From Phycisphaera mikurensis NBRC 102666 (GTDB taxonomy: Bacteria > Planctomycetota > Phycisphaerae > Phycisphaerales > Phycisphaeraceae), in the NCBI RefSeq assembly GCF_000284115.1, contig NC_017080.1, positions 930,001 through 962,000 of the forward strand: a DNA stretch of 32,000 bases. Reading direction: 5' to 3'. The notes beneath the pieces are model-generated. The model saw nothing but the letters and a program-made list of their open reading frames with translations. It made no database searches and was not told the origin of the DNA. The position numbers and the translations under genes are program-made. Numbering within the stretch: position 1 is the stretch's first letter; every line of letters begins with the position of its first letter. This document shows positions 17,355-32,000 of the stretch, one piece after another.

Positions 17355-17553
17355 GTTGGAATCCTTGGTTGGTGTTTCAGCCCGTACGACCGAAACGCTA
17401 GCGCCAGCCCGGCGGATTTCCACCCGCCAGTCGGCGAAAGCCCGGCGGTGCGGCGGCCGCCGGTTCCTCTCCCCGCGCGGCGGAACACGCGCCGCTTCGG
17501 GAGGCGGCCGCCGCGGACGCGGCCTCCCGGCCGGCCCGCGACCCGCCTCGCCG

Positions 17554-19113
17554 CTACCGCTCGTCGAGCTTCGCCGCCAGCCTCTCCTCCGCCGACATCT
17601 TCGTCTTCCCCCGGATCAGCAGCTTGATCGGCACCTCCGAGAAGGGCAGCTCCTCGCGGATGTTGTTCATCAGGTACCGCTGGTAGTTGTGATCGAACAG
17701 CTCCGGGTCGTTGACGAACAGCGCCAGCGTGGGCGGGTTCGTCGCCGGCATCGTCGCGTAGAAGAGACGCGGCTGCTTGCCCGCCCGGTTCGTGCCCGGC
17801 CCGCGCCTCTGGTAGACGGCCTCGAAGAAGCGGTTGAGCTCGCCCGTGCCGACGCGGTGGCTGCTCTGCTCGTGCAGGTTGTGGGCCAGGGCGACCACGT
17901 CGCGGAGCCCGGTGCCGTTCTTCGCCGAGATGAAGACGATCGGGGCGAAGTCCAGCCCGCGGAGCGCGTCTTCCAGGTAGGTGACGTACGCCTCCTGGTC
18001 CATCACCCGGTTGCCCTCCTTGTCGCGGCCGATCAGGTCCCACTTGTTGACCACGATCACGCAGGGCTTGTAGTGCTTCTGCACCTCCTGGCTGAGGATC
18101 TGGTCGACCTGGCTCACCGGCACGGTCGCGTCGAGCAGCAGCAGCACCACGTCGGCCCGGCGGACGCTCCGCAGCGAGCGGTGCTGGCTGTAGAACTCGA
18201 TGGAGTCGCCGAGGCTCTTGGTCTTCCGGACGCCGGCGGTGTCGATGGCCGTGAAGGCCACGGGGGGCTCCGCGGGATCGACGGCCTTCATCGTGACCTC
18301 CACGTCGATGGAGTCTCGCGTGGTGCCCGCCTTCTCGCTGACGATAACCCGCTGCTGGCCCGCGAGCGCGTTGAGCAGCGTGCTCTTCCCGGCGTTCCGC
18401 TTGCCGACGAGCGCGAGCTTCAGGCCGCTTCCCAGCGGGTCCCGCGGGCCCATGCCCGCGTCGGTCCGCTGCTTGCGGGCTTCCTTGGCCGCCTCCCGCA
18501 GCCGGGCCTCGAGCTCGTGGCGGTTGTGCCGCGTCGTCGCCGAGACGAAGACCGGCTCGCCGAAGCCCAGCTTCATCGCCTCCCAGCCCTCGGTCGCCTG
18601 GGTCGGCGCATCCATCTTGTTGGCCACCACGACGACGGGCTTGGCCGACCGGTTCGGCTGGCCCGGCTTGCCCCCTCCTGATCCGGCACCGCTCTCCCGA
18701 AGGACCTTCGCCGCCCGCTCGTCCAGCGGCGTCACGCCGTCGACCGCGTCGATGACGAACAGCACCGCGTCGCACTCGCCGAGGCCCTCGGCGATCTGCC
18801 GCTCCACCTCGCCGGCGAGATCGTCGCGGTCGACGATGCCGTAGCCGCCGGTGTCGACGATCTCCAGCGACAGCATCCCGCCGGAGCCGTCCTCCAGCGG
18901 GATCTGGGCCCCGGTCGAGAGCCGGTCCCGCGTCACGCCGGCGGTCGGGTCCACGATCGACACCCGCCGCCCCGCGAGCATGTTCATCAGGCTGGACTTG
19001 CCCACGTTGGGCCGCCCGACGATCGCGAATCGGATCGGATCGGCCCCCACCGGCAGCGGGAAGTCCGTCGTGTCGTCGTTCTCGTCGCGGTTGGGGGGGG
19101 GAGCGGGTTGCAT
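17554..19113 (-). CDS. der: ribosome-biogenesis GTPase Der (EngA)
   Basis: Two tandem GTPase domains (GRPNVGKSSLMN...DTGG...NKMD and GKRNAGKSTLLN...DTAG...NKWD) followed by a KH-like C-terminal domain. I chose the start at MQPAPPPNRD (complement of 19111-19113). An in-frame ATG at 19155 is an alternative. The rest of the 754-aa track ORF is low-complexity. Confidence 0.9.
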   Translation of the reverse strand: MQPAPPPNRDENDDTTDFPLPVGADPIRFAIVGRPNVGKSSLMNMLAGRRVSIVDPTAGVTRDRLSTGAQIPLEDGSGGMLSLEIVDTGGYGIVDRDDLAGEVERQIAEGLGECDAVLFVIDAVDGVTPLDERAAKVLRESGAGSGGGKPGQPNRSAKPVVVVANKMDAPTQATEGWEAMKLGFGEPVFVSATTRHNRHELEARLREAAKEARKQRTDAGMGPRDPLGSGLKLALVGKRNAGKSTLLNALAGQQRVIVSEKAGTTRDSIDVEVTMKAVDPAEPPVAFTAIDTAGVRKTKSLGDSIEFYSQHRSLRSVRRADVVLLLLDATVPVSQVDQILSQEVQKHYKPCVIVVNKWDLIGRDKEGNRVMDQEAYVTYLEDALRGLDFAPIVFISAKNGTGLRDVVALAHNLHEQSSHRVGTGELNRFFEAVYQRRGPGTNRAGKQPRLFYATMPATNPPTLALFVNDPELFDHNYQRYLMNNIREELPFSEVPIKLLIRGKTKMSAEERLAAKLDER

Positions 19114-19157
19114 GACGCGGAGCAGTATCGCGTGGGTGCGCGTCGGCTGCGCCATCC

Positions 19158-19300
19158 AAGAGACGAAGCGACGCAGCGGGGGGTGTCGTGCGGTGGGGCT
19201 GCGTCGCCCGCGAAGGTCGGGGCTGCGAGCTCCGGCATCGAAGTTGGCGATCCACGCCGCCTCGACCCTCGCGCGTCGCCCGGACGTCGCTTCGTCTCTT
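19158..19300. repeat. long-range inverted repeat / 143-nt potential stem-loop in the ugpC-der spacer
   Basis: AAGAGACGAAGCGACG (19158-19173) is the exact reverse complement of CGTCGCTTCGTCTCTT (19285-19300). An inner imperfect pairing links CGCGAAGGTCGGGG and CCTCGACCCTCGCG. Confidence 0.5.
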
Positions 19301-19340
19301 CCCGAACAGCGAGCGGCGCAGCCGCTCATGCCTTCCACCT

Positions 19341-20462
19341 TCAGACCGCGTCCCGCAGCGTCAGGTTCTTCCCGTACTCGCCGGTCTCGAAGAGGTGCAG
19401 CTTGTCGGGGTCCAGGAAGAGCTTCACGGCCGTGCCCTCCTCGATGACCTCCGCCTTCACGCGGGCGACCAGGCGGCCGCCGCCGGCAACCGAGACGAAC
19501 ATGTCCATCATGTTGCCCAGCGGCTCGACCACGTCCAGCTCGCCGTCGATGGCCATGTCCTCGCGGTTCGCCTCGGCCGTCGGGTGCAGCTCCAGCCCCT
19601 CGGGCCGGATGCCCAGCACGACCTCCTGGCCGACGTGCTGCTGAGCGACCTCGCCGTGGTGGCCGTCGAGCACCACGCGGCCGGCGTCGCTCTGGAAGAC
19701 CGCGCGGCCGTCCTCGGCGACGATCCGCCCGTCGATGAAGTTCATCGGCGGCGTGCCGAGGAAGGCCGCGACGAACCGGTTGACCGGCTGGCGGTACACG
19801 CCCAGCGGCGTGTCGCACTGCTGGATGTGCCCGCCGGACATGACGACCACGCGGTCGCCGAGGGTCATCGCCTCCTCCTGGTCGTGCGTCACGTAGATCG
19901 TGGTGGTCGACAGCCGCTTGTGGAGCCGCTTGAGCTCCGCCCGCGTCTCCACCCGCAGCTTCGCGTCGAGGTTCGAAAGCGGCTCATCGAAGAGGAAGAC
20001 CGAGGGGTCGCGGACGATCGCCCGGCCCAGGGCGACACGCTGCCGCTGGCCACCCGAGAGCGCCTTGGGCCGCCGCTCCAGCAGCTCGGTGATGCCGAGG
20101 ATCTTCGCCGCGTCCCGCACCCGCTTGTCGATCTCGACCTTCGGGAACTTCCGCAGCTTCAGCCCGAAGGCCATGTTCTTGTACACCGTCATGTGCGGGT
20201 ACAGGGCGTAGTTCTGGAACACCATCGCGATGTCGCGGTCCTTGGGGGCGACGTGGTTCACCACGCGGCCGCCGATGGAGATCGTGCCGCCGGTGATGTC
20301 TTCGAGGCCCGCGACCATCCGCAGCGTCGTGGACTTGCCGCAGCCCGAGGGCCCGACCAGCACGAGGAACTCGCCGTCGTTGATGTGGAGCGAGATGCCG
20401 CGGACCGCGGTCACGTCGCCCTCGTAGGTCTTCACCACGTCCTGGATCTGTACGTCTGCCAA
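19341..20462 (-). CDS. ugpC: ABC transporter ATP-binding protein, MalK/UgpC/MsmX family (sugar-type importer ATPase)
   Basis: Walker A GPSGCGKST, Q-loop, signature LSGGQRQRVALGRA, Walker B VFLFDEPLSNLD, and a C-terminal TOBE/regulatory domain. I put the start at TTG (complement of 20460-20462), giving M-ADVQIQDVVKTY like family members. The upstream ATG at 20558 is the alternative. No permease or binding-protein gene is adjacent. The symbol is tentative. Confidence 0.85.
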   Translation of the reverse strand: MADVQIQDVVKTYEGDVTAVRGISLHINDGEFLVLVGPSGCGKSTTLRMVAGLEDITGGTISIGGRVVNHVAPKDRDIAMVFQNYALYPHMTVYKNMAFGLKLRKFPKVEIDKRVRDAAKILGITELLERRPKALSGGQRQRVALGRAIVRDPSVFLFDEPLSNLDAKLRVETRAELKRLHKRLSTTTIYVTHDQEEAMTLGDRVVVMSGGHIQQCDTPLGVYRQPVNRFVAAFLGTPPMNFIDGRIVAEDGRAVFQSDAGRVVLDGHHGEVAQQHVGQEVVLGIRPEGLELHPTAEANREDMAIDGELDVVEPLGNMMDMFVSVAGGGRLVARVKAEVIEEGTAVKLFLDPDKLHLFETGEYGKNLTLRDAV

Positions 20463-20595
20463 AAGAGAGTCTTCCGAAGGAGGAGAGGAACTGCCCGCGT
20501 TTCGCGGCGGGCCCAAAGGGCACCCACCGCACGCATCGCTGCCCGCGTCCGCGGGCAAGCCGCAAGGCTATCAGCCCGGGTCGGGCTCGCCGGAT

Positions 20596-20641
20596 CCGCG
20601 GACCGTCGGCTCCGGAGCCTCTCGAGACCGACGGTCCGCGG
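20596..20641. repeat. 46-bp palindromic element, copy C (best copy); possible ruvX terminator
   Basis: CCGCGGACCGTCGG (20596-20609) and CCGACGGTCCGCGG (20628-20641) form a perfect 14-bp stem with an 18-nt loop, which equals 10-bp core arms separated by 26 nt. It lies between the ruvX stop and the ugpC start. There is no U-tract. Confidence 0.75.
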
Positions 20642-20709
20642 CGTCGGGGTCATCTCGGACGCCGCTGCCCAGCGGGCGCGTCGCTCGGCCCCGCGTCGAG
20701 GTCCGGCCC

Positions 20710-21120
20710 TCAATCCGTTGCAAAGTACCGCTGCAGCAGCATGACCGCCGCCAGTCCGTCCCGCCGCGTCTTCTTCTGCTTGTGCGTCAGCCCCGACCGG
20801 CCCATCGCCTCGTCCGCTTCCAGCGAGCTCCGCCGCTCGTCCACCAGGTGCACCGGCACGCCGAACCGTTCCGCCGCCTCCGCCGCGAACGCCCGCGCCC
20901 GCCTCGCCGCCTTGCCCGCCGACCCGTCCATGTGCAGCGGCAGGCCCAGCACCAGCGCGTCGGGCGTCTCCCGCTCGACGATCCGCGCGAGCCGCGTCCA
21001 ACGCTCCGGCCCCGGCGGCGCCACGACCGCCGGCAGCGGCGAAGCGATCCCCGTCGCGTCGTCCCCCAGCGCCAGCCCCGTCCGCTTGTTGCCGAGGTCG
21101 ATGGCGAGGAAGCGCGGCAC
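20710..21120 (-). CDS. ruvX: Holliday-junction resolvase-like nuclease RuvX (YqgF)
   Basis: 136 aa from GTG (complement of 21118-21120): VPRFLAIDLGNKRTGLALGDD...LVLGLPLHMDGS...VHLVDERRSSLEA...QKKTRRDGLAAVMLLQRYF. The YqgF signature D-x-G-x-K-R-x-G is at the N-terminus. The longer 711-aa track ORF is a chimera with the antisense of the RHS gene. Confidence 0.88.
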   Translation of the reverse strand: MPRFLAIDLGNKRTGLALGDDATGIASPLPAVVAPPGPERWTRLARIVERETPDALVLGLPLHMDGSAGKAARRARAFAAEAAERFGVPVHLVDERRSSLEADEAMGRSGLTHKQKKTRRDGLAAVMLLQRYFATD

Positions 21121-21168
21121 CGCGGAGACGGTATCCGCGGCGTTGAAGGTCCATTCGAAAGGGTAGAG

Positions 21169-23313
21169 TTGCGACACCTTCTCCCGGCCATCCTCGCCCT
21201 CCGGCCGCTCGTGATCACCCACACCGACATCCGCCGCCACCGGCCCACGCTCTTGATCGGCCCGCGGGTGGGGGCCCAGGGCGAGCCCTTCCGCGCCACC
21301 TTCAGCATCACCCGCAGCACCGCGTCGCGAAACCACGACATGCTCAAGTTCCTCTTCGGGGTGGAAGAGGAAGGCACGTACAACGTCCTCACGCTCTCGC
21401 ACAAGGGCGGGAGCCCGAGCGCGCCTTCGGGCAGCCGGCTCGACGACGCCTCCGGCGTGGGCGTCGCCGGCACCCGCACCGCCGCCAACGCCGTCAGCAC
21501 CCCGAACCCCAGCGACCGGGTCTGGGTCCGCGTGGCCTCCGACGGCGCCGCCGTGACCGCCAAGATGCTCCTCGACAACACCGGCCCGCCCAGCGAGGCC
21601 GCCTGGTCCGGCGCCGGCGAGGCGTACCGCAGCACCGCCTTCCCGATGAACGGCGGGCGGGTGGGCTTCCGCTCTGCCTACGGCGTCGCCTTCGTCCGGC
21701 ACTTCACCCTCGAGACCGACCACGACAACGACGGTTCCTGGACCCGCGAGTACGACGCCCTCATCGACCACCCCGGCGGCCACGCCACGATCCGGTACGA
21801 GCACGACGCCGCGGGCAACCTCACCTTCGACGGCGTGTTCTCCTACGCCTACGACGCGGTCGCCGATCCAGGCGACCGAAGGCTGGCGCCTCCGAGGCTG
21901 AAGCCAGCTTCCTTGTCCATCCGGCTGGTCAGCGTCCGCAACGCCTACCGCGAGGCTGGTGCCAGCCAGAGCGTGCAGGAGGGCTCGGTCGTCACCGCCA
22001 TGGCCTACGACGGCCTGGGCCGGCGGACCACCCGAGCCGTCCAGAACAGCGGGAACCTCGACTTCACCCACCACGCCTACTTCGACGGCCAGCGGCAGGT
22101 CGAGGAACGCAACGGCTCGGACCTGGTGCTCCGTCAGCAGGTCTGGGGCCTGGACTACATCGACGAGCTGGTGAGCACTTCGCTGAACTTCGACCCCACC
22201 GACACCACCGAGAGCGTCTGCGAGCGGCACTTCTACGCCCTCCACGACAGCCAGTACAACATCCTGGGCATCGTCGCCGCCGGCGGCGCCCTGGTGGAGC
22301 GATACGAGTACACGCCCTACGGACAGAGGCAGGTCTACGGGAGTGGGTGGCTGCCATACGATCTCGATGGCAACGGGGTGGTGGATCAAGCAGACGCCGA
22401 CGTCGTAGACGCAGGGCGGTACGGGCCCGACGATTCGTCTTCCTACATCGCGGATGTATCGGGAGACGGTCAGGTCGACGACAACGACTACTACCCCGTC
22501 CTCTACAGCGGAGCCTACCCGTTCCTGGGGCTCCAGATCCTGCCGCAGAACGACCTGAAGGCGTACACACCGCGGCTGGGTAGCTTCGCCGGTCGTCTCG
22601 CCTCCGAAGGTGCCGGCAGCAGCTTGAACCCCTTCGGCCACCAGGGCCTCCACCACGACGAGGCCACCGGGCTCATCTACAACCGGGCACGCATGCTCCA
22701 CCCCACGCTGGGCAGGTTCGTGCAGAGAGATCCGCTGGGGTATGTGGATGGGGCCAATCAATATCTCTACCACCCAGCTCTTCATGGAGGAACTGATTGG
22801 ACAGGGACCCGGCGAGTTCCTCCATATTCGGTGCCTACTTACCAAGCGAGATCTACGGCGGAGGATGCTGGAAGCAATTCACTTCAGCCAGGTGAGTGGG
22901 GAGGTAATCGAGACGCAATCCGTCACTGCGTTCTGATGTGCGAGTTAGCGAAAGACTTCGGGCGTCAGGGTGCTATCGACTTCGGACATGCGTACGAGAC
23001 GGATAACGAGCCGACTCTGCCCGACGGAGCTCGAGGCGTTCAAGGATACGCAGACTATACAGCTTTTGTGCTACACGATCGGGCGATGGATCTACACAAC
23101 AATGAGGTGGGAGCTTCGATTGGCGAGGCTCTGAGTGACCTGCAAGACCTCGTTCCGGAATGCAGCCGAACTTGCGCAGACGCATGTGCCGATGCCTTGG
23201 ACAACGGAGCCCTGCTCGTAAATGTAGAAAACGGATATAAACTAGACTGGCATCCTGGTCAAGCTCCATGGGAACGTCCTCCGACGATTCCCGATGTTAA
23301 TGTGTTCCCCTAA
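21169..23313 (+). CDS. RHS/YD-repeat polymorphic toxin, copy 1 (jelly-roll-like N-domain, YD repeats, dockerin/EF-hand-like insert, RHS core end, unique C-terminal domain CT1)
   Basis: YD repeats are present (YEHDAAGNLTFDG, YAYDA, MAYDGLGRRTTR, YEYTPYGQ), and the core terminus is GLIYNRARMLHPTLGRFVQRDPLGYVDGANQYLY. After about 22740 GC drops sharply and the sequence is unrelated to copy 2. The start is uncertain: TTG 21169 (used), GTG 21211 or ATG 21340. The frame stays open upstream only because it is antisense to ruvX. Confidence 0.8.
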   Translation: MRHLLPAILALRPLVITHTDIRRHRPTLLIGPRVGAQGEPFRATFSITRSTASRNHDMLKFLFGVEEEGTYNVLTLSHKGGSPSAPSGSRLDDASGVGVAGTRTAANAVSTPNPSDRVWVRVASDGAAVTAKMLLDNTGPPSEAAWSGAGEAYRSTAFPMNGGRVGFRSAYGVAFVRHFTLETDHDNDGSWTREYDALIDHPGGHATIRYEHDAAGNLTFDGVFSYAYDAVADPGDRRLAPPRLKPASLSIRLVSVRNAYREAGASQSVQEGSVVTAMAYDGLGRRTTRAVQNSGNLDFTHHAYFDGQRQVEERNGSDLVLRQQVWGLDYIDELVSTSLNFDPTDTTESVCERHFYALHDSQYNILGIVAAGGALVERYEYTPYGQRQVYGSGWLPYDLDGNGVVDQADADVVDAGRYGPDDSSSYIADVSGDGQVDDNDYYPVLYSGAYPFLGLQILPQNDLKAYTPRLGSFAGRLASEGAGSSLNPFGHQGLHHDEATGLIYNRARMLHPTLGRFVQRDPLGYVDGANQYLYHPALHGGTDWTGTRRVPPYSVPTYQARSTAEDAGSNSLQPGEWGGNRDAIRHCVLMCELAKDFGRQGAIDFGHAYETDNEPTLPDGARGVQGYADYTAFVLHDRAMDLHNNEVGASIGEALSDLQDLVPECSRTCADACADALDNGALLVNVENGYKLDWHPGQAPWERPPTIPDVNVFP

Positions 23314-23389
23314 GAGGTCTTGTAAGTTCCGTGCAGGCGATTGGCCTAACGTAATCCTATGGCAGGATTCAAAAGTTTGGATGTAAGGC

Positions 23390-24001
23390 ATGATGTTTTT
23401 TAAAGGGGTCAGGGCAACGCTTGTACTTGCGGTTATATCTATCTGTGTTGCTGGAACAGCCTCGGTTTCCTGTTCCAATCATGGCGATCGCGCATCCGAG
23501 GCGAAGATTGATGTGACCACGAAGCGGGAAGATTGGAGCAGTTGGGCTCTACGCAGGGTTGTGATCGCGTCAGAGACCCCGGTTGACGAATCGGGCTCTG
23601 TCGGTTTCTCTATCGTGCAACCACGCAATTCTTTTGCACCTCAGGGCATAGGGATCTATCGTAGATTGAGCTGGGCGGAAAGCTACGAGAACCTCAGGAT
23701 TTTTGCAGCTATCAAGACTTACCGGGACTTGCGGTTGTCGCTCCATGTTGAAGGTGACCGAGATTCCGAGGGCGAGTATGGCAGCCTTGATTTTCGGATC
23801 CCTTTCCAGTGGGGATCAGCAGTGGTTGAAGTTAAGCGTGAGGAACGTTTAATCCTCGCTGAGTGCCAGGTCCCTTCTGATGTAGAATCCGTACTATTAT
23901 GGCTCCAGGTGGAAGACCCACAACCTGCAACATCGCCCAAACTAAACCAGAACGAGGGCGTTGACTTCGCCATATCCGGTCTAATCATCGTACTTGACTA
24001 A
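23390..24001 (+). CDS. secreted beta-rich protein, candidate cognate immunity for CT1
   Basis: 203 aa in AT-richer DNA contiguous with CT1, starting 76 nt after the RHS1 stop. It has an N-terminal signal peptide (MMFFKGVRATLVLAVISICVAGTASVSC). I recognise no family. The immunity role is inferred from position only. Confidence 0.5.
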   Translation: MMFFKGVRATLVLAVISICVAGTASVSCSNHGDRASEAKIDVTTKREDWSSWALRRVVIASETPVDESGSVGFSIVQPRNSFAPQGIGIYRRLSWAESYENLRIFAAIKTYRDLRLSLHVEGDRDSEGEYGSLDFRIPFQWGSAVVEVKREERLILAECQVPSDVESVLLWLQVEDPQPATSPKLNQNEGVDFAISGLIIVLD

Positions 24002-24147
24002 GAAGCTGTTTCAAAACTCCCCATGATCATCCGCCGGTGGCAGATGGTGAGGCAGGCGAGGTCGTGCATGCCCTGAAAGTGGCTTCCGGTCCGCTCGTAG
24101 CAGACCTTCAACCGGCGGTCGTTCCCGAACCATGCCAATGCCCGCTC
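23998..24147 (-). pseudogene. 3'-terminal remnant of an IS5-family (IS427/IS1031-like) DDE transposase gene
   Basis: The minus-strand translation PERALAWFGNDRRLKVCYERTGSHFQGMHDLACLTICHRRMIMGSFETAS* matches the conserved C-terminus of IS5-family transposases (ER..aW....RRL...YE......f..lA...i..RR). Everything upstream is replaced by the GAAGCAAGGGG array. A possible IS end, GAAGCTGTTTCAAAAC, follows a CTAA at 23998-24001. Confidence 0.6.
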
Positions 24148-24149
24148 GG

Positions 24150-24241
24150 GAAGCAAGGGGTCAGGGAAGCAAGGGGAAGCAAGGGGTCAGGGAAGCAAGG
24201 GGGAAGCAAGGGGAAGCAAGGGGTCAAGCCCCTTGCAGAGG
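24150..24241 (+). repeat. iterated half-hairpin array plus terminal complete hairpin (left end of RAYT element 1)
   Basis: Six head-to-tail copies of GAAGCAAGGGG, with or without TCAG, at 10-17 bp periodicity. The last copy is completed to GGAAGCAAGGGG-TCAAG-CCCCTTGCAGAGG (24212-24241). That hairpin has an 8-bp stem at 24216-24223 / 24229-24236 and a 5-nt loop. Confidence 0.85.
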
Positions 24242-24306
24242 TGCTATGGTGCCGTCGCCGAGTCGCCTCCCGCTCCCCCGCTCTCTCGCACCCTCAACCG
24301 CTCCCC

Positions 24307-25398
24307 ATGGCCCGCTCCCTCCGCCACCAGATCCTGCCTGATGCCACCTGCGTGGTTCATGTTGTGTCGAAGATCTCGCGGTCGCTTCACTTGCTGGTGC
24401 CCGATGAGGATCGTGCCGGCGCCGGCGCCGGTGCCGTTGGCGACGCGGCCGAGCACCCCGACCTCCGCAAGGAGCTGCTGCTGCAGCGGCTGGAGACGCT
24501 GGCGGAGCAGACCTCGATCTCGGTGTGCGGGTTTGCGGTGATGGGCAACCACGTCCACCTGATCCTGCGGCGGGACAAGGAGGAGGCCGCGGCGTGGCCG
24601 GCGGCGGAGGTGGTGGGGCGGTGGCTTGCGTTGCACCCCAAGCGCAACCGGGCGCGGCAGCCGGTGGAGACGCCGGAGGAGGACGTGGCGGCGATGGTGG
24701 CGGACGAGGGACTGGTGGAGACGCTGCGTGCGAAGCTGTCGAGTGTCTCGCAATTCATGAAGGACCTCAAGCAGCGGACCGCGGAGGCGGTGAACAAGCT
24801 GGAGGGCCGCGGCGGGCGGCTCTGGGACGGGACGTTCAAGAGCAAGCTGATCGAGGACCAGGAGCAGCTGGTGGCGACGATGGTGTACGTGGACCTCAAC
24901 CCCTTCGCGGCGGGGGTGTGCGAGACGCCCGAAGAGGGCCGCCACACCTCGCTGGCGGGGCGGCTGGGGCGGGACGAGCCGGCGGGGGAGGTGAGCAAGC
25001 CCGCAGGATCCGCGGACCGCGACCGGGAGGAGGCCTCGGAGGCCGGCGGTCCGCGGGTTGGTCTGCGGTTGCCACGGCGGAGGTCCAGCGGGGCCTGGCT
25101 GCGGCCGCTGGACGAGTCGGCCAAGCGGGCGCGGGAGCGTGGGCAGCGGCGGCACCCGCGAGGGCGGGCGGGGCTCGAAGCGGAGGCCGCGGGAACGGTG
25201 AGCCCGGGGCTGTCGCTGCGGGTCTACCTGCGGATCCTCGACGCGGTCAGCCGCAAGCTGCGGGCGGGCAAGAAACGCCTTGCGGCGGGCATGGCAAGCG
25301 TCTTCGAGCGGCTGAACCTGGACGCCGACGCGGTGGTCGGGCGGGTGCTGGCGATGGCGCAGCGGGACGGGCTGGCGGTGGCGGGCCGGGGCAGCTGA
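24307..25398 (+). CDS. REP-associated tyrosine transposase-like HUH protein (Y1 transposase / IS200-like, COG1943), copy 1
   Basis: 363 aa from MARSLRHQILPD. Family blocks are present: VVHVVSKISRSLHLLVPDEDR, the HUH motif in AVMGNHVHLILRR, GRLWDGTFKSKLIEDQEQL, and the catalytic-Tyr block MVYVDLNPFAAGV. A C-terminal extension of about 150 aa is Arg/Ala-rich. Confidence 0.8.
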   Translation: MARSLRHQILPDATCVVHVVSKISRSLHLLVPDEDRAGAGAGAVGDAAEHPDLRKELLLQRLETLAEQTSISVCGFAVMGNHVHLILRRDKEEAAAWPAAEVVGRWLALHPKRNRARQPVETPEEDVAAMVADEGLVETLRAKLSSVSQFMKDLKQRTAEAVNKLEGRGGRLWDGTFKSKLIEDQEQLVATMVYVDLNPFAAGVCETPEEGRHTSLAGRLGRDEPAGEVSKPAGSADRDREEASEAGGPRVGLRLPRRRSSGAWLRPLDESAKRARERGQRRHPRGRAGLEAEAAGTVSPGLSLRVYLRILDAVSRKLRAGKKRLAAGMASVFERLNLDADAVVGRVLAMAQRDGLAVAGRGS

Positions 25399-25818
25399 AC
25401 CGAGCTCGCCGGGGCCTGGCTACCTCGCAGGAGGCGTTGCTTCTTCCGAACGGATCCGCCGGGCTCGCCGGGGCCTACCCGGGCCTGCCCGGGCCTGCCC
25501 GGGCATCGCCGGGCGAGGGCTGTTGCGGTGACTGCGCCAGCCGCTTTGCAACGCAAGGCGGGCTCTTGTCCGGATCAGCGTCGATCCCCGAGGCGGCGTC
25601 GCCGGGCTCCGGCCCGCTCAGCGTTGCGAAGCGGCTGACGCTGTCAGCCCCGCCGGGATCTCGGTGGGCCTGCCTGGGAAGCTGCTCGGATCGTGGGGTG
25701 GCACACCGGAGATGCACGGCCTCGTGGTGATGGCGACGGATCGATCGGTGAACGCCGGGTTCTCGTTTCCGAGCCCGCGGCTCATCCGCTCGTCGGCCGG
25801 TTCCTTACCCTCTCCCTC

Positions 25819-26154
25819 ATGCCGTCCCGCCTTCCAGCAGCCCTGCTGCTCGTTCTCCCGCTGCTGCTCCCGGCCTGCGTTGCGCCCATGTACGTGAACA
25901 TCCCCTCGGAGGGCGGCATCGCGGCGAGCGATCCGAACAGCTTCAACGTGCGGGACGTGGTGGCCGACTCGATCGCGGCGGCGGTGGAGCGGGAGCCGCT
26001 GGAGGGCGTCTACGAGATCTTGCTGCCCGAGGGCACCACGCAGGGGCAGCATGGGGTGAGGCCCCTTGCGTTTGTGTCGCCGAGGTCGATGGCGAGGAAG
26101 CGCGGCACCGCGGAGACGGTATCCGCGGCGTTGAAGGTCCATTCGAAAGGGTAG
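25819..26154 (+). CDS. lipoprotein gene fragment fused across the module junction (probably truncated / chimeric ORF)
   Basis: MPSRLPAALLLVLPLLLPAC (signal peptide with lipobox) is followed by about 60 plausible residues. From about 26055 the ORF reads through the junction and across the antisense of the ruvX start fragment (..GVRPLAFVSPRSMARKRGTAETVSAALKVHSKG*). Confidence 0.35.
   Translation: MPSRLPAALLLVLPLLLPACVAPMYVNIPSEGGIAASDPNSFNVRDVVADSIAAAVEREPLEGVYEILLPEGTTQGQHGVRPLAFVSPRSMARKRGTAETVSAALKVHSKG
26079..26108 (-). pseudogene. ruvX 5' fragment (codons 1-10), identical to 21091-21120
   Basis: GCCGAGGTCGATGGCGAGGAAGCGCGGCAC is identical to the start of intact ruvX, and identity continues through the 48-bp spacer into RHS copy 2. 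To the left the sequence is unrelated and begins with CCCCTTGC (26062-26069). Confidence 0.85.
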
Positions 26155-26156
26155 AG

Positions 26157-28331
26157 TTGCGACACCTTCTCCCGGCCATCCTCGCCCTCCGGCCGCTCGT
26201 GATCACCCACACCGACATCCGCCGCCACCGGCCCACGCTGCTCATCGGCCCGCGGGTGGGGGCCCAGGGCCAGCCCTTCCGCGCGACCTTCAGCTTCACC
26301 CGCAGCACCGCCTCGCGGAACCACGACATGCTCAAGTTCCTCTTCGGGGTGGAAGAGGAAGGCACGTACAACGTGCTCGCATTCTCCCACAAAGGCGGGA
26401 GCCCGTGGGCGCCTTCAGGCAGCCGGCTCGAGGACGCCTCCGGCATCAGCGTCGCCGGCACCCGCACCGCCGCCCACGCCGTCAGCACCCCCAACCCCAG
26501 CGACCGGGTCTGGGTCCGCGTGGCCTCCGACGGCGCCGCCGTGACCGCCAAGATGCTCCTCGACAACACCGGCCCGCCCAGCGAGGCCGCCTGGTCCGGC
26601 GCCGGCGAGGCGTACCGCAGCACCGCCTTCCCGATGAACGGCGGGCGGGTGGGCTTCCGCTCTGCCTACGGCGTCGCCTTCGTCCGGCACTTCACCCTCG
26701 AGACCGACCACGACAACGACGGTTCCTGGACCCGCGAGTACGACGCCCTCATCGACCACCCCGGCGGCCACGCCACGATCCGGTACGAGCACGACGCCGC
26801 GGGCAACCTCACCTTCGACGGCGTGTTCTCCTACGCCTACGACGCGTGGAACCGGCTGGTCAGCGTCCGCAACGCCTACCGCGAGGCTGGTGCCGGCCAG
26901 AGCGTGCAGGAGGGCTCGGTCGTCACCGCCATGGCCTACGACGGCCTGGGCCGGCGGACCACCCGAGCCGTCCAGAACAGCGGGAACCTCGACTTCACCC
27001 ACCACGCCTACTTCGACGGCCAGCGGCAGGTCGAGGAACGCAACGGCTCGGACCTGGTGCTCCGTCAGCAGGTCTGGGGCCTGGACTACATCGACGAGCT
27101 GGTGAGCACTTCGCTGAACTTCGACCCCACCGACACCACCGAGAGCGTCTGCGAGCGGCACTTCTACGCCCTCCACGACAGCCAGTACAACATCCTGGGC
27201 ATCGTCGCCGCCGGCGGAGCCCTCGTGGAGCGGTACGAGTACACGCCGTATGGGCAGCGGCAGGTCTACGGGAGCGGAACCCTCAAGCTCGACGTCAACG
27301 GCGACGGGTCGCAGGACCAGGACGACACTGCGTTGGTGCAGGCGCTGGTGAACGATCCAACCCACCCCGACCACCACCTCGCCGACATTTACAGCGACGG
27401 GCAGATCAACCAGAACGACGTGAGCGCGATGGGCGAGATCTACGCCTTCGCCTACTACGACGGCCCCGAGGCCAACCACCTCGACCGCAGCGACCTCAAG
27501 CGTCTGACGCCCCGCCTCGGCACCACAAGGGGTCCCGCGTACGCAGCCTGGCTCACCGCTCCGGTCTACACCACGCTCAACCCCTTCGGCCACCAGGGCC
27601 TCCACCACGACGAGGCCACCGGGCTCATCTACAACCGGGCACGCATGCTCCACCCCACGCTGGGGAGGTTCGTGCAGAGAGACCCGCTGGGCAATCGCGT
27701 CTCATGGAGATCAGTGAGGCCGCGGTTTACCCGGAATCGAGAGGATGGAAGGACGATGATGGTTGTCTCTCGAGCTGAGGACATTGCTTACGTCCTGTAT
27801 CCACAACTACAATATTTTGCTGGGATGTCGCTGTACGAGTATGCGGCGAGTTCTCCGAGAAGCCTTGTTGATCCCACGGGCCTAGTACCGTGGCCCGCGA
27901 TCGTGGTGGGCACATGTTTAAATGAATCGACTGATCGATGCCAGATAATCTGGCACGATTACGATAATCCGAAGGATGGGGGCGATTTTGAGCTGCTGCG
28001 CCCCGGCGAAAGAAGCGGATCGAAGGATCGGTGCGACTACGTTTATCTGAATGGCGAGTGGTATAAGAATCGTTCTCGCTTGGTGTACGTAGCGGATTCT
28101 CCACTCGACCCATATGTGAAGTACAAGAAAACGCGGGGAGGGAAATATCTAAAGTCACCTTTATCTCCTGTAAGTCGCGCTCCGGATGGTCCTTGGTATC
28201 CAGGCAGAACTGGCAAGAAGCCCTCTAAGACTATCTGCGAAAAGTATTGCGAGTGCAATCTCTTGAGCGACCCCGCTCATCAAGGACCAGATTGTGATGA
28301 CGACTGCGTGAAGAGATGTGAGGATCTCTGA
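26157..28331 (+). CDS. RHS/YD-repeat polymorphic toxin, copy 2 (same body as copy 1, different dockerin-like insert, unique C-terminal domain CT2)
   Basis: About 95-100% identical to copy 1 over 26157 to about 27200 and again over 27579-27691 (..NPFGHQGLHHDEATGLIYNRARMLHPTLGRFVQRDPLG). It then enters AT-richer unique sequence containing a second core-end motif, GMSLYEYAASSPRSLVDPTGL, and a Cys-rich tail. Start options are TTG 26157, GTG 26199 and ATG 26328. Confidence 0.8.
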   Translation: MRHLLPAILALRPLVITHTDIRRHRPTLLIGPRVGAQGQPFRATFSFTRSTASRNHDMLKFLFGVEEEGTYNVLAFSHKGGSPWAPSGSRLEDASGISVAGTRTAAHAVSTPNPSDRVWVRVASDGAAVTAKMLLDNTGPPSEAAWSGAGEAYRSTAFPMNGGRVGFRSAYGVAFVRHFTLETDHDNDGSWTREYDALIDHPGGHATIRYEHDAAGNLTFDGVFSYAYDAWNRLVSVRNAYREAGAGQSVQEGSVVTAMAYDGLGRRTTRAVQNSGNLDFTHHAYFDGQRQVEERNGSDLVLRQQVWGLDYIDELVSTSLNFDPTDTTESVCERHFYALHDSQYNILGIVAAGGALVERYEYTPYGQRQVYGSGTLKLDVNGDGSQDQDDTALVQALVNDPTHPDHHLADIYSDGQINQNDVSAMGEIYAFAYYDGPEANHLDRSDLKRLTPRLGTTRGPAYAAWLTAPVYTTLNPFGHQGLHHDEATGLIYNRARMLHPTLGRFVQRDPLGNRVSWRSVRPRFTRNREDGRTMMVVSRAEDIAYVLYPQLQYFAGMSLYEYAASSPRSLVDPTGLVPWPAIVVGTCLNESTDRCQIIWHDYDNPKDGGDFELLRPGERSGSKDRCDYVYLNGEWYKNRSRLVYVADSPLDPYVKYKKTRGGKYLKSPLSPVSRAPDGPWYPGRTGKKPSKTICEKYCECNLLSDPAHQGPDCDDDCVKRCEDL

Positions 28332-28765
28332 TGCGGCCCGAACCTCAATCTTTAGCAGTTTCATTTTGGATGATGGTCGGCTGTCTCGCGGTTGTTATTC
28401 CATCAGCAATTTATAGCGGCCGAGAAGAACCTTTTTACGGCGTGCAGCCTGCGTGGGTATTCTTTTCTCAGATCGGTTCAGCAACCGGCGTCTTATTCGC
28501 GTCGCTCATCTCGGTCGTGTGCATTCCCTGGAGGCGCGTGTATGGAAACTATCGAGTACTTATCGCGTCAGTCGCTCTATGCATATCGAATCTCCTTGTA
28601 TCTGCATTAGGATGCTTCGTCGCTGCGACGTTTGTTGAGGACGTGAGGAACTATATTGCTATATTAGAGGCTCAAGATCTTACGTCGACCACCACGGAGA
28701 AGAAAGCTCATGGAGATCCGGGAGGGGAGAAACTCCCGCTTGTAGATATTGAGCGATCTCAGTAA
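28331..28765 (+). CDS. small polytopic membrane protein, candidate cognate immunity for CT2
   Basis: Its ATG overlaps the RHS2 stop (TGATG, 28329-28333). It is 144 aa with 3-4 hydrophobic helices (LAVSFWMMVGCLAVVIPSAIY, WVFFSQIGSATGVLFASLISVVCI, VLIASVALCISNLLVSALGCFVAATFV). Its low GC is contiguous with CT2. Confidence 0.6.
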   Translation: MRPEPQSLAVSFWMMVGCLAVVIPSAIYSGREEPFYGVQPAWVFFSQIGSATGVLFASLISVVCIPWRRVYGNYRVLIASVALCISNLLVSALGCFVAATFVEDVRNYIAILEAQDLTSTTTEKKAHGDPGGEKLPLVDIERSQ

Positions 28766-28775
28766 GCGAGCGTCA

Positions 28776-28874
28776 ATGCACAACCATACTTTCGACTTTG
28801 GCCTCCAATGGAGCCCCCGCCTCCTCCTCGGCGCCCTCACACTGCTTGCGCTCCCACCCGCGTCCGCCCAACTA
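28776..28874 (+). pseudogene. 5' fragment of a secreted-protein gene cut off by RAYT element 2
   Basis: MHNHTFDFGLQWSPRLLLGALTLLALPPASAQ looks like a signal peptide ending in an ASA-Q cleavage site. The reading frame then runs straight into the GAAGCAAGGGG array, which translates as nonsense (GSKGSRKQGVKEGEARGQ). Confidence 0.35.
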
Positions 28875-28980
28875 GGAAGCAAGGGGTCAAGGAAGCAAGG
28901 GGTCAAGGAAGGGGAAGCAAGGGGTCAGGAAGCAAGGCGGAAGCAAGGGCGGAAGCAAGGGGTCAAGCCCCTTGCAAGGG
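28875..28980 (+). repeat. iterated half-hairpin array plus terminal complete hairpin (left end of RAYT element 2)
   Basis: Six or seven copies of GGAAGCAAGG(G/C)G, with or without TCAA/TCAG, some degenerate (GGAAGGGG, GAAGCAAGGCG, GAAGCAAGGGC). The array ends in GGAAGCAAGGGG-TCAAG-CCCCTTGCAAGGG (28951-28980). Confidence 0.85.
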
Positions 28981-29045
28981 TGCTATGATGCTGTCGCTGC
29001 GTCGCCTCCCGCTCCCCCGCTCTCTCGCACCCTCAACCGCTCCCC

Positions 29046-30131
29046 ATGGCCCGCTCTCTCCGCCACCAGATCCTGCCTGACGCCACCTGCGTCGTCCATG
29101 TTGTGTCGAAGATCTCGCGGTCGCTTCACTTGCTGGTGCCCGATGAGGATCGTGCCGGCGCCGGTGCCGTTGGCGACGCGGCCGAGCACCCCGACCTCCG
29201 CAAGGAGCTGCTGATGCAGCGGATGCAGACCCTGGCGGAGCAGACCTCGATCTCGGTATGCGGGTTCGCGGTGATGGACAACCACGTCCACCTGATCCTG
29301 CGGCGGGACAAGGAGGAGGCCGCGGCGTGGCCGGCGGCGGAGGTGGTGGGGCGGTGGCTTGCGTTGCACCCCAAGCGGAATCGGGCGCGGCAGCCGGTGG
29401 AGACGCCGGAGGAGGATGTGGCGGCGATGGTGGCGGACGCGGGCCTGGTGGAGGCGCTGCGTGGGAAGCTCTCGAGCGTCTCGCAGTTTATGAAAGACCT
29501 CAAGCAGCGGACGGCCGAGGCGGTGAACAAGCTGGAAGGCCGCGGCGGGCGGCTCTGGGACGGGACGTTCAAGAGCAAGCTGATCGAGGACCAGGAGCAG
29601 CTGGTGGCGACGATGGTGTACGTGGACCTCAACCCCTTCGCGGCGGGGGTGTGCGAGACGCCCGAAGAGGGCCGCCACACCTCGCTGGCGGGGCGGCTGG
29701 GGCGGGACGAGCCGGCGGGGGAGGTGAGCAAGCCCGCAGGATCCGCGGACCGCGACCGGGAGGAGGCCTCGGAGGCCGGCGGTCCGCGGGTTGGTCTGCG
29801 GTTGCCACGGCGGAGGTCCAGCGGGGCCTGGCTGCGGCCGCTGGACGAGTCGGCCCAGCGGGCGCGGAAGCGTGGGCAACGGCGGCACCCGCGAGGGCGG
29901 GCGGGGCTGAAAGCGGAGGCCGCGGGAACGGTGAGCCCGGGGCTGTCGCTGCAGATCTACCTGCGGATCCTCGACGCGGTCAGCCGCAAGCTGCGGGCGG
30001 GCAAGAAACGCCTTGCGGCGGGCATGGCAAGCGTCTTCGAGCGGCTGAACCTGGACGCCGACGCGGTGGTCGGGCGGGTGCTGGCGATGGCGCAGCGGGA
30101 CGGGCTGGCGGTGGCGGGCCGGGGCAGCTGA
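29046..30131 (+). CDS. REP-associated tyrosine transposase-like HUH protein, copy 2
   Basis: 361 aa. It is near-identical to copy 1 except for a 6-nt indel (AGAGAGAV vs AGAGAV) and scattered substitutions. The HUH block (MDNHVHLILRR) and Tyr block (VYVDLNPFAAGV) are intact. Confidence 0.8.
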   Translation: MARSLRHQILPDATCVVHVVSKISRSLHLLVPDEDRAGAGAVGDAAEHPDLRKELLMQRMQTLAEQTSISVCGFAVMDNHVHLILRRDKEEAAAWPAAEVVGRWLALHPKRNRARQPVETPEEDVAAMVADAGLVEALRGKLSSVSQFMKDLKQRTAEAVNKLEGRGGRLWDGTFKSKLIEDQEQLVATMVYVDLNPFAAGVCETPEEGRHTSLAGRLGRDEPAGEVSKPAGSADRDREEASEAGGPRVGLRLPRRRSSGAWLRPLDESAQRARKRGQRRHPRGRAGLKAEAAGTVSPGLSLQIYLRILDAVSRKLRAGKKRLAAGMASVFERLNLDADAVVGRVLAMAQRDGLAVAGRGS

Positions 30132-30247
30132 ACCCGCAAGCGGCAGCGGCGGTCCCGCTGATCTACGACCGATCGCATCGCTGCCGGACCATCAAGCGTC
30201 ACCCGGAGCCCGATTCAGCGTTGGCGGAGAAGGTGGCAGCCACCAAG

Positions 30248-30330
30248 GGAAGCAAGGGGTCAAGCCCCTTGCAGAGGTGCTATAATGCCGTCGCCGAGTA
30301 GGAAGCAAGGGGTCAAGCCCCTTGCAGAGG
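30248..30330 (+). repeat. two orphan copies of the RAYT-element hairpin (no transposase gene)
   Basis: The 30-mer GGAAGCAAGGGGTCAAGCCCCTTGCAGAGG occurs at 30248-30277 and 30301-30330, and both copies are perfect. The first is followed by 21 nt of the RAYT leader (TGCTATAATGCCGTCGCCGAG). The second abuts the diverged ruvX fragment. Confidence 0.85.
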
Positions 30331-30333
30331 CCC

Positions 30334-30471
30334 GCGGGCCAGCCGCCGCCACCGCTCCGGACCCGGCGACGCGGCAGGTGCCGGCGGCGGGGAGGTGGTC
30401 CCGGGCGCGTCGTTGCCGAGCGCAAGGCCGTTCCGCCGGCCGCCGAGGTCGATCGCGAGGCAACGCGGCAC
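30334..30471 (-). pseudogene. diverged ruvX 5' fragment (codons 1-46)
   Basis: The minus-strand translation is VPRCLAIDLGGRRNGLALGNDAPGTTSPPPAPAASPGPERWRRLAR, against intact RuvX VPRFLAIDLGNKRTGLALGDDATGIASPLPAVVAPPGPERWTRLAR. My hand alignment gives 33/46 aa and about 103/138 nt. Homology stops at the hairpin copy ending at 30330. Confidence 0.75.
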
Positions 30472-30564
30472 GCGTGCGGGCGGAACGGGGCCGCCCGGGG
30501 ATCCTCTAGACTCCCGCAACCCGGGCCGGGCCGAGCCGGGCGCTGCCACCCCCACCGATCTTTT

Positions 30565-31845
30565 ATGCCTGAGAACTCCCCGCCGACCGCTCGCCTCGAC
30601 CTGCCCGAAGGGCCCATCGACCTGCCGATCGTTGTTGGCACCGCCGACGAGAAGTCGGTCGACATCTCGAAGCTCCGGGCCCAAACCGGCTACATCACGC
30701 TCGACGAGGGGTACCGCAACACGGGCAGCGTCAAGAGCGACATCACCTTCATCGACGGCGAGAAGGGCATCCTCCGCTACCGCGGCTATCCCATCGAGGA
30801 GGTGTGCGAGAACAGCTCCTTCATTGAGACGGCGCTGCTGCTGATCCACGGCGAGAAGCCGAGCAAGGAGTCGCTCTCGAGGTTCAGCGAGCGGCTGACG
30901 CACCACCAGATGATCCACGAGTCGGTGCGGCAGATGTTCGACGGCTTCCCGCCGACGGCGCACCCGATGGCGGTGCTCTCGTCGATGATCAACACGATCT
31001 CCTGCTTCCAACCGGCGATCATGAACATCGACGACGAGGAGGAGTTCGACGACACCGCGGCGATGCTGATCAGCAAGGTGCGGACGGTCGCGGCGGCCGC
31101 TTACAAGACCCAGATGGGGCATCCCATCATGTACCCGGATCCGAAGCTCACGTACTGCGAGAACTTCCTCCACATGATGTTCTCGCTCCCGCTGGGGCGG
31201 ATCGAGCCCGATCCGGACGTCGTGGAGGCGCTCAACCTCATCTTCATCCTGCACGCGGACCACGAACAGAACTGCTCGACGGCGACGGTGCGGATGGTCG
31301 GCTCCTCGGGGGCGAACCTCTTCGCCAGCTGCGCCGCCGGCGTCTGTGCCCTCTGGGGCCCGCTGCACGGCGGCGCGAACGTCGCGGTCATGAACCAGCT
31401 CGAGGAGATCCACAACAGCGACATCACGACGCGGAAGTACATCGACAACCTGAAGGCGACCAAGGGCAAGCTCTTCGGCTTCGGCCACGGCGTCTACAAG
31501 AGCTACGACCCGCGTGCGATGGTCCTCAAGAAGTCCGCCGACAAGGTGCTCGCGAAGCTCGGGGTCGACGATCCGCTGCTCGCGATCGCTCGCGAGCTGG
31601 AGGAGACGGCGCTCAACGACGAGTACTTCGTCAGCCGGAACCTCTATCCCAACGTCGACTTCTATTCCGGGATCCTCATGCGGGCGATGGGCATCCCCAC
31701 GAACATGTTCACGGTGATGTTCGCGATCGGCCGCATGCCCGGCTGGATCGCTCAGTGGTGGGAGGTCAACCAGCAGAAAAGCCGGATCTACCGGCCGCGG
31801 CAGGTCTACACCGGCGCCCGGGAGCGAGCCTGGAACGCCGGCTGA
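30565..31845 (+). CDS. gltA: citrate synthase (type II, hexameric-type length)
   Basis: 426 aa from MPENSPPTARLDLPEGPIDLPIVVG. Citrate synthase blocks are present: ILRYRGYPIEEL-like, LILHADHEQNCSTATVR, WGPLHGGANVAV, GFGHGVYKSYDPRA, and NVDFYSGI. The 81 residues upstream in the track ORF are not used. Confidence 0.93.
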   Translation: MPENSPPTARLDLPEGPIDLPIVVGTADEKSVDISKLRAQTGYITLDEGYRNTGSVKSDITFIDGEKGILRYRGYPIEEVCENSSFIETALLLIHGEKPSKESLSRFSERLTHHQMIHESVRQMFDGFPPTAHPMAVLSSMINTISCFQPAIMNIDDEEEFDDTAAMLISKVRTVAAAAYKTQMGHPIMYPDPKLTYCENFLHMMFSLPLGRIEPDPDVVEALNLIFILHADHEQNCSTATVRMVGSSGANLFASCAAGVCALWGPLHGGANVAVMNQLEEIHNSDITTRKYIDNLKATKGKLFGFGHGVYKSYDPRAMVLKKSADKVLAKLGVDDPLLAIARELEETALNDEYFVSRNLYPNVDFYSGILMRAMGIPTNMFTVMFAIGRMPGWIAQWWEVNQQKSRIYRPRQVYTGARERAWNAG

Positions 31846-32000
31846 GGCGGAGCCCAAACGCCGCAGAGCAGCCGGGCGGGGCTCCGGGATGCCGAGGCCG
31901 GCCGGGTGACCCGCGTGCGACCCCCCCGTGCCCCCGCGCCCTAAGCGGGTGGCAACGGTGGATCCGGGGGCCGGCGACACGCCCCCGTCCGACGCCCGCC

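Follow-up and report, generated by a model that had tools for sequence, protein, structure and literature searches.

We analysed a 32,000-nucleotide (nt) stretch of the Phycisphaera mikurensis NBRC 102666 genome (contig NC_017080.1, positions 930,001 to 962,000 of the forward strand; hereafter the window), in which a gene for a Y1-HUH enzyme is preceded by an array of short direct repeats. A preliminary description, made from the letters of the DNA, had reported six copies of the 5' arm of a hairpin, only the last of which is completed by a 3' arm, and a motif scan of the window bore this out. AAGCAAGGGG occurs in six exact copies on the + strand within 24151-24223 (starts at 24151, 24167, 24177, 24193, 24204, and 24214), and only the sixth is followed by TCAAG-CCCCTTGC to give the hairpin GCAAGGGG/TCAAG/CCCCTTGC at 24216-24236. 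The + strand from 24148 to 24241 reads GGGAAGCAAGGGGTCA GGGAAGCAAG GGGAAGCAAGGGGTCA GGGAAGCAAGG GGGAAGCAAG GGGAAGCAAGGGG-TCAAG-CCCCTTGC-AGAGG. This region forms the upstream end of a Y1-HUH gene unit of the TIRYT type (similar to TnpA-Y1 subclasses 2.1/2.3), and the complete hairpin, ∼80 nt before the start codon, is the candidate core DNA site of this unit. Each of the five "half-hairpins" is a stutter copy of the 5' side of the core, composed of the prefix GGAA, the 5' arm, and zero to five bases of the loop (Table 1).

The units of this array are spaced 16, 10, 16, 11, and 10 nt from start to start, and the loop portion GGGGTCAGG is present in two of them. Tandem Repeats Finder returned periods of 10, 11, and 16 nt, together with a higher-order period of 26 nt (16+10; 2.5 copies, 97% matches). 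When up to one mismatch to AAGCAAGGGG was allowed, we observed 16 matches in the window, compared to 1.48 ± 1.2 in shuffled sequences, and a count of 16 was reached in 0 of 100 shuffles. Matches of this type lay on the + strand beside two copies of the gene, except for one on the minus strand with a single mismatch (26062-26071). We did not find a copy of the hairpin motif on the minus strand of the window, even with up to three mismatches allowed, all 16 motif copies being on one strand; we examined 46 kb of the P. mikurensis genome, in which the motif occurred only beside the two gene copies. The array is not an assembly artefact because contig JACHEL010000007 of an independent P. mikurensis assembly (GCA_014207395.1) is identical to window positions 14307-32000, with 0 mismatches over 17,694 nt that include both arrays.

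When folded as single-stranded DNA, as the preliminary description had envisaged, the hairpin alone (a perfect 8-base-pair (bp) stem with a 5-nt loop) was stable on either strand at -9.8 kcal/mol (z = -3.7 and -4.1), but the 181-nt region around the array had no excess of structure over shuffled sequences (z = +0.56 and +0.31). Consensus scans called neither a terminator nor a sigma-70 promoter at this hairpin, and Rfam at gathering thresholds gave no match within 23900-30600. The leader opens with TGCTATGGT, which looks like an extended -10 element; the sigma-70 consensus scan did not call it. We also considered the array as coding sequence, as the open reading frame (ORF) 24037-25398 spans it, and rejected this because the start in relatives corresponds to the ATG at 24307 and copy 2 has a closed frame upstream of the gene.

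A second whole unit of array, hairpin, and gene, which the preliminary description had overlooked, lies at 28874-30131 of the same window. Its array is irregular, with about seven units including the complete one. Aligning the two copies showed that the number and make-up of the array units vary: the arrays differ by several insertions and deletions as well as substitutions (six regular versus about seven irregular units), and the leaders differ by point substitutions only. The copies are homologous from the array's first base up to 6 nt beyond the stop codon, and the element end that had been placed 6 nt past the stop codon stands only in this sense, as the site at which homology between them is lost.

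A right-end hairpin, which the preliminary description could not find, does exist for copy 2, which is followed by two complete hairpins in the orientation of its own, at 30252-30272 and 30305-30325; downstream of copy 1, we observed only a degenerate look-alike (26046-26069) and no complete hairpin. The solo long unit that contains the first of these hairpins matches the left ends of copies 1 and 2 at 96% and 87% identity, respectively, and has a perfect TGCTATAAT. Its greater likeness to copy 1 suggests that it was derived from another copy and not by local duplication. The restart at 30299/30300, the position of AGGAAGC, had no obvious microhomology. There were no inverted repeats between the flanks of the window gene copies.

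Table 1. Features of the two Y1-HUH gene units and their surroundings (window coordinates)
Feature	Position	Strand	Details
Copy-1 array, partial units	24148..24213	+	Five 3'-truncated units, each GG(G)AAGCAAGGGG; two with the loop piece TCAGG
Copy-1 core, sixth unit	24214..24241	+	Complete core; stems 24216-24223 and 24229-24236; loop TCAAG 24224-24228; then AGAGG
Copy-1 leader	24242..24306	+	Core to start codon; opens with TGCTATGGT (TGCTATGAT in copy 2, TGCTATAAT in the solo unit)
Y1-HUH gene, copy 1	24307..25398	+	363 amino acids; NHVH at residues 81-84; catalytic-type Tyr194 in YVDLNP
Separate tandem array	25459..25514		CCGGGCCTGC-like; period 10, 5.6 copies; ∼60 nt past the copy-1 stop codon
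Degenerate hairpin-like sequence	26046..26069	+	GCATGGGG-TGAGG-CCCCTTGC (z = -1.9); at the junction with a duplicated 5' ruvX piece; membership in the feature uncertain
Copy-2 array, partial units	28874..28952	+	About six partial units; two perfect 16-mers AGGAAGCAAGGGGTCA; degenerate AAGGAAGGGG, AAGCAAGGCG, AAGCAAGGGC
Copy-2 complete hairpin unit	28953..28980	+	Stems 28955-28962 and 28968-28975
Y1-HUH gene, copy 2	29046..30131	+	361 amino acids; 14 amino-acid differences from copy 1
Solo long unit	30247..30299	+	53 nt in the gene's orientation; complete hairpin (30252-30272) plus 22 nt of leader with TGCTATAAT
Second solo hairpin unit	30300..30330	+	Hairpin 30305-30325; restarts at AGGAAGC; abuts a diverged ruvX fragment

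The gene product had been called a RAYT/IS200-like HUH protein, whose presumed activity would require an intact HUH/Tyr active site. An AlphaFold model of the 363-residue protein (mean predicted local distance difference test score (pLDDT) of 75 and predicted template modeling score of 0.78) had a core with pLDDT above 85-90, with disorder in two linkers and at the extreme termini. The best match in the PDB was E. coli TnpA-REP with a REP hairpin (4ER8; E = 6.8e-5; target-normalised TM-score of 0.67), followed by the IS200-type TnpA structures of ISDra2 and IS608 (2XM3, 2VJV). In the model, helices at residues 99-166 form an insertion of ∼80 residues between the strands at 82-89 and 173-182, and a tail follows at 215-363; we did not recognise a DNA-binding domain in the C-terminal part. 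H82, H84, Y194, and the D-L-N that follows it were invariant in an alignment of 23 relatives, and the two window gene copies have diverged with a synonymous rate (dS) of 0.075 and a ratio of nonsynonymous to synonymous rates (dN/dS) of 0.20. The gene is thus predicted to encode an intact Y1-HUH superfamily enzyme, in keeping with the HUH activity presumed, and the enzyme looks active, judging by the modelled fold, the invariant H82/H84/Y194, and the dN/dS value. We also noted that residue 80 (24544-24546) is Gly in copy 1 (MGNHVH) and Asp (MDNHVH) in 21 of the 23 relatives, in copy 2, and in the third genomic copy.

While the HUH assignment was upheld by the fold and the match to 4ER8, its canonical RAYT/IS200 part was not. 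The window proteins scored 46.0 and 47.9 bits against REP_Tyr_transpos (NF047646; cut-off 80), and the score against transpos_IS200 was 14.7 bits (cut-off 55). Pfam Y1_Tnp gave 20.9 bits for the window protein, compared to a cut-off of 23, and matched 21 of the 23 relatives. With these scores and its TIRYT-type motifs, the protein classifies as neither a canonical RAYT nor an IS200/IS605 TnpA. By motifs and architecture, it fits TIRYT, that is, TnpA-Y1 subclass 2.1, or the offshoot subclass 2.3 (Table 1 of PMC6006769). Di Nocera et al. 2013 (PMC3733652) described TIRYT or "TIRtron" genes, with GGGGWSAS as a motif common to their terminal inverted repeats. These genes correspond to subclass 2.1 in the classification of Quentin et al. 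2018 (PMC6006769), who reported this subclass in ∼15% of the sampled strains and found no REP-like sequences for it or for its offshoot 2.3; YVDLNP is the exact motif of subclass 2.3.

Our protein resembles TIRYT in being a long Y1-HUH protein with NHVH and Y-x-x-L-N-P, an insertion between beta3 and alphaC, and a long C-terminal tail. The likeness extends to the DNA: the loop-bearing half-sites read GGGGTCAG, which fits GGGGWSAS, three times in the arrays and beside the gene; the P. mikurensis genome has several diverged paralogues; and the more distant relatives (31-39% identity) are mobile and flanked by inverted repeats of ∼17 nt. GGGGWSAS is not enriched in the window as a whole (10 matches versus 16 expected), and only its position in the arrays is notable. 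To our knowledge, no DNA substrate, cleavage site, or function has been reported for subclasses 2.1 and 2.3. Our units differ from TIRYT in that the window copies have no inverted GGGGWSAS partner, all their repeats being direct, and in that their core is a true hairpin. One-sided arrays of partial copies are mentioned in neither PMC3733652 nor PMC6006769.

The window units share with the REP/RAYT "REPtron" of E. coli TnpA-REP the best structural match, the class-2 Y...NP motif, a GC-rich hairpin beside the gene, and solo hairpins nearby. However, the protein falls below the curated RAYT cut-off, the hairpins are direct rather than inverted and lack a GTAG tag, and the gene is not single-copy. 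P. mikurensis has three near-identical copies (BAM02980, BAM02984, and BAM03181) and three paralogues at 51-57% identity. With IS200/IS605 elements (IS608, ISDra2), whose ends are described as having single subterminal hairpins (PMC6006769), the units share the Y1-HUH fold, and copy 2 has hairpins on one strand to either side of its gene (28955-28975 and 30252-30325), like the left-end and right-end hairpins of IS608; copy 1 lacks this arrangement. The window motif is Y...NP instead of Y...Q, the protein is 2.5 times longer, and the two window copies share no right end. The preliminary description was right that such an array does not belong to the textbook IS200 or REP architecture: we found no description of one-sided partial-copy arrays in the RAYT, IS200, and TIRYT literature searched, and the arrays beside this HUH family appear to be undescribed.

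A metagenome scan with the family alignment recovered 80 loci at 31-44% identity, each with 2.5 kb of flank per side. Gene starts in these relatives were estimated from alignment offsets, and the repeat detectors relied on exact k-mers, which undercounts degenerate arrays. Many of the relatives have the anatomy of the window with wholly different repeat sequences. L016 has five copies of GGGAATCGTGGGG, some with part of the loop, the last of which is completed by GGCCCC. L020 has the 11-mer GGGATCGCAGG in four perfect copies, of which the last is extended to CGCAGGGG-TCTGT-CCCCCGCG, and L021 has the unit of L020 with half-sites cut inside the loop, plus a duplicated "hairpin + leader" long unit like that at 30247-30330. 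L019 and L025 follow the array pattern of L016 and L020, L017 has about ten GATCGCATGGG units, and in L085 the units (GCAATTCAAGC...) have differing cut-points. An 8-mer present at least three times was found in 23/65 upstream flanks, 15/79 downstream flanks, and 20/374 other windows of these loci.

In the more distant relatives, the gene mostly lies between inverted cores of ∼17 nt, AAAA-GGACAGGCA-TTAT, with the variants GCCAGGCAC, GGACATGCA, and GGACACGCA; the closer and the more distant relatives, as grouped here by layout, do not separate cleanly in phylogenetic terms. The upstream core starts at a median of 80 nt ahead of the start codon, and the core is often repeated downstream of the gene. 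TTGAC was found 5-8 nt inside the upstream core at 26/46 ends and inside the downstream core at 0/37, and the gene promoter therefore appears to abut the upstream core.

An array unit in the relatives consists of an end-specific prefix of 6-10 nt followed by the first 0-7 nt of the core, after which the sequence restarts; the units lie 5' of the core and in its orientation, as in L077 (CGAAAGAC-GAAAGGAC-GAAAGAC-GAAA/GGACAGGCA). The point inside the core at which a partial unit stops is variable, being after GGAC, GGACAG, or GGACAGG in relatives and after GGGG or TCA in the window. The two ends of one element have in common an inverted repeat of ∼17 nt, and their prefixes differ, with an identity of ∼0.3-0.45 beyond position -5. 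Cores of the GGACAGGCA type do not form a hairpin yet carry arrays, and at L017, the locus with the longest array, folding reaches no more than -2.4 kcal/mol and is not significant. The array of the preliminary description thus stands, but its unit is better termed a prefix plus the 5' part of the core site than a half-hairpin, since relatives without a hairpin have arrays.

We read the anatomy, polarity, turnover, and family distribution of the stutters directly from these loci. After near-duplicate loci had been excluded (in this polarity test only), the 7-mer just 5' of the core was present again in the adjoining 63 nt of that side at 33/81 ends (20/44 upstream and 13/37 downstream). On the 3' side of the core, recurrence was 0/81, and at random positions it was 1.5%, an enrichment of ∼27-fold for the 5' side. 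The inverted right-end arrays of L020 and L021 and the direct downstream copies of L017 and L023 had the same 5'-side polarity.

The arrays also differ between otherwise very similar elements. L017 and L023, which are 98.5% identical to the right of the array, have ∼10 versus 2 units upstream and 2 versus 3 units in their downstream copies, and L070 and L071 are 99% identical with stutters that differ at both ends. Homology was bounded by two inverted repeats in L070/L071, L070/L076/L077, L081/L091/L093, L068/L085, and L036/L038. Because homology is confined between the inverted repeats, these units move, and sequence comparison in this way shows the gene units to be mobile or recombinogenic entities. 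In three pairs (the two window copies, L018/L023, and L020/L021), homology starts exactly at the array. From the loci compared here, we take stutters to be a polar, fast-changing, and family-wide property of these cores.

We reasoned that the arrays are a polar record or by-product of activity at the core site of the enzyme rather than conserved sequence-specific iterons, a reading to which we assign a probability of about 0.5. Footprints of enzyme activity were one of three mechanisms offered in the preliminary description, and they fit best among the three. As to how the partial copies are made, we infer that the G/purine-rich strand would be synthesised from the prefix into the core, that synthesis would be halted in the core, at variable points, by bound or covalently attached enzyme, and that it would then restart at the fixed first base of the prefix. 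The restart could follow either of two routes. In one, an HUH nick at the prefix boundary would be followed by short strand-displacement extension by a polymerase, after which the enzyme would rejoin the extended strand to the old 5' end; in the other, the nascent strand would stall at the enzyme-occupied core and slip back. The array may secondarily provide extra partial binding sites. A more specific proposal, which we hold tentatively and somewhat doubt, is that the Y1-HUH enzyme itself writes the arrays by nicking, extending, and resealing at the outer boundary of its site, so that each partial unit would represent one abortive initiation.

Several observations weigh against a by-product of core-site activity. 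We know of no sequence signature that tells enzyme-made copies from slippage, and most junctions in the window lie in G-runs, which allow a microhomology of 1-3 nt. The 26-nt higher-order period of copy 1 implies that some growth occurred by ordinary multi-unit duplication. Stutter was observed at only ∼40% of ends. Furthermore, both window copies have 6-7 units, and units in the closest relatives are most often 10-11 nt apart (16/35 spacings); selection for binding sites on one helical face would also give this spacing and the retained units.

Such selection is the essence of functional iterons, whereby the half-sites would load several enzyme molecules, or the C-terminal domain, and control the promoter or assemble a cleavage/replication complex, as happens at origins of rolling-circle plasmids and CRESS-DNA viruses. 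Geminivirus and circovirus origins carry iterons. A precedent is the double-strand origin of pMV158, in which, as quoted in PMC10288648, the HUH protein RepB binds 7-bp and 11-bp tandem direct repeats that accompany a hairpin. The units described here share with such origins an HUH enzyme, a hairpin, and adjoining tandem direct repeats of about one helical turn. The position of the array directly upstream of the core and leader, the TTGAC confined to upstream cores in relatives (26/46 versus 0/37), the 10-11 nt spacing in the window and closest relatives, the 6-7 units kept in both window copies, and the match of GGGGTCAG within the units to the GGGGWSAS of TIRYT inverted repeats are all consistent with iterons.

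However, the enzymes at those origins are Rep-class, whereas ours has a Y1 transposase-type fold, and the repeats there are complete and conserved, with binding demonstrated, whereas here they are truncated, variable, and end-specific. Sequence-specific iteron-like sites, the second mechanism of the preliminary description, are a poor fit, given that the two ends of an element carry different prefixes. Arrays were also present at promoter-less downstream ends (13/37), which speaks against a role at the promoter only. The truncation points of the units vary, the copy number varies among elements of 98-99% identity, ∼60% of ends lack an array, and the protein has no recognised C-terminal DNA-binding domain. 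The spacings of the more distant relatives spread over 7-17 nt, and we discarded helical phasing as a general rule since it holds only in the closest relatives. We therefore regard iterons as unlikely.

Incidental, microsatellite-type slippage of a short G-rich repeat, unlinked to the enzyme, would account for the G-run microhomology at most junctions, for the block duplication seen as the 26-nt period, and for the free variation of arrays between copies. It was already disfavoured by the polarity and enrichment tests: stutter occurred at 41% of ends versus 1.5% of random positions, and at 0/81 on the other side of the core. It also does not account for recurrence with unrelated unit sequences in many relatives and at both ends, or for a side that is constant relative to the orientation of the core, even at direct downstream copies. 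That the array is not incidental was borne out by the array of the second genomic copy and by distant relatives that repeat the anatomy with unrelated sequences, and we consider slippage of this kind distinctly improbable.

In a structural switch, the six 5' arms would compete for the one 3' arm, or a G-quadruplex would form, to tune hairpin formation or transcription. Alternative pairings do exist, as the minimum-energy fold makes up only 0.0097 of the ensemble of the 94-nt array (ensemble -12.7 versus -9.8 kcal/mol), and the copy-1 array is one of only seven + strand stretches in the window that fit the canonical G-quadruplex pattern. On the other hand, the proximal pairing is always the most stable, and arrays are also present in relatives that lack a hairpin or G-runs. 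Pairing of the arms with the single 3' arm, the third mechanism of the preliminary description, is thus physically possible but fails to explain the hairpin-less relatives, and a G-quadruplex was rejected as a common denominator because copy 2 and relatives lack the pattern. We give this switch very little credence. Least probable of all is a recombination or capture site at whose outer edge foreign DNA (here Rhs toxin/immunity-like cassettes) is joined, leaving the units as joining scars: for the two window copies, L018/L023, and L020/L021, the edge of the array is exactly where homology sets in, and low-GC variable cassettes in the window end there, but an array that simply marks the end of a mobile unit predicts the same pattern, the flanks are limited to 2.5 kb, relatives have no recurrent cassette type, and Rhs tips are already known to be exchanged by homologous recombination.

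The TIRYT class is widespread and uncharacterised, and the stutter offers its candidate recognition site, namely GGGG-loop-CCCC here and AAAAGGACAGGCATTAT in many relatives. From the stutter, one can also predict on which strand and at which boundary the enzyme acts, and heterogeneity in array length could provide a cheap in vivo read-out of activity. If the enzyme writes the arrays, they would reveal the cleavage position and a replication-coupled (copy-out) action for a large class of HUH "transposases". For annotation, such arrays beside an "IS200-like transposase" should not be taken for CRISPR-like arrays, REP clusters, or assembly noise.

Both gene units lie within a tandem duplication of ∼4.9 kb (20984-25404 and 26010-30137). 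This duplication includes two Rhs-core proteins (21169-23313 and 26157-28331) with cores that are 97-100% identical and low-GC C-terminal tips that differ; the small ORFs that follow them (23390-24001 and 28331-28765) differ from each other and had no Pfam match. The tips and small ORFs resemble exchanged Rhs toxin/immunity cassettes, and the variable Rhs-tip region stops exactly at the array. We did not find a third member of the Rhs protein clusters. Fragments of the 5' part of ruvX recur at 26072-26160 (97%) and 30335-30471 (75%), the reference ruvX being at 20710-21177 on the minus strand. Each of these fragments directly follows a hairpin or its look-alike, and the hairpins therefore sit at rearrangement junctions.

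At the outer edge of the copy-1 array, a minus-strand ORF of 52 amino acids (23998-24156) stops. It gave the impression of an IS4/IS5-type transposase C-terminus (...FGNDRRLKVCYERTGSHF...), and we rejected an IS5-type transposase remnant cut by the array because a Pfam search up to E = 10 gave no match. On the other side of the gene, GCTCGCCGGGGCCT is repeated at 25403 and 25463, just past the copy-1 stop codon, and the CCGGGCCTGC-like array at 25459-25514 fits the G-quadruplex pattern; neither is present after copy 2.

Some observations concern loci elsewhere. The diverged P. mikurensis paralogue L001 has its own upstream core GCATGGGGTGACACCCAC, present twice (2780-2920), and the diverged P. 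mikurensis paralogue L002 has its own upstream hairpin GTCAAGGGGA-CTG-TCCCCTTGAC (2890-2920; -10.8 kcal/mol). Each paralogue therefore appears to have its own matching site. Clusters of the GGGATCGCAGGGG unit lie away from the gene in L020 (836-908 and 4289-4437) and L021 (4313-4410); one is an inverted, array-rich right end ∼820 nt downstream, past two small ORFs, and another lies 1.5 kb upstream, which suggests REP-like dispersal and carried cargo. In L076, an internal piece of its own gene (3716-3814; compare L070 1822-1921) lies directly outside the downstream inverted repeat, indicating nested or tandem element insertions. Lastly, ∼150 nt upstream of the gene in L042, the prefix GGGGAAGCAA occurs twice before a GGACAGGCAC core; it is the same 10-mer as the P. 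mikurensis inter-unit junction, and this identity could reflect chance or a common origin.

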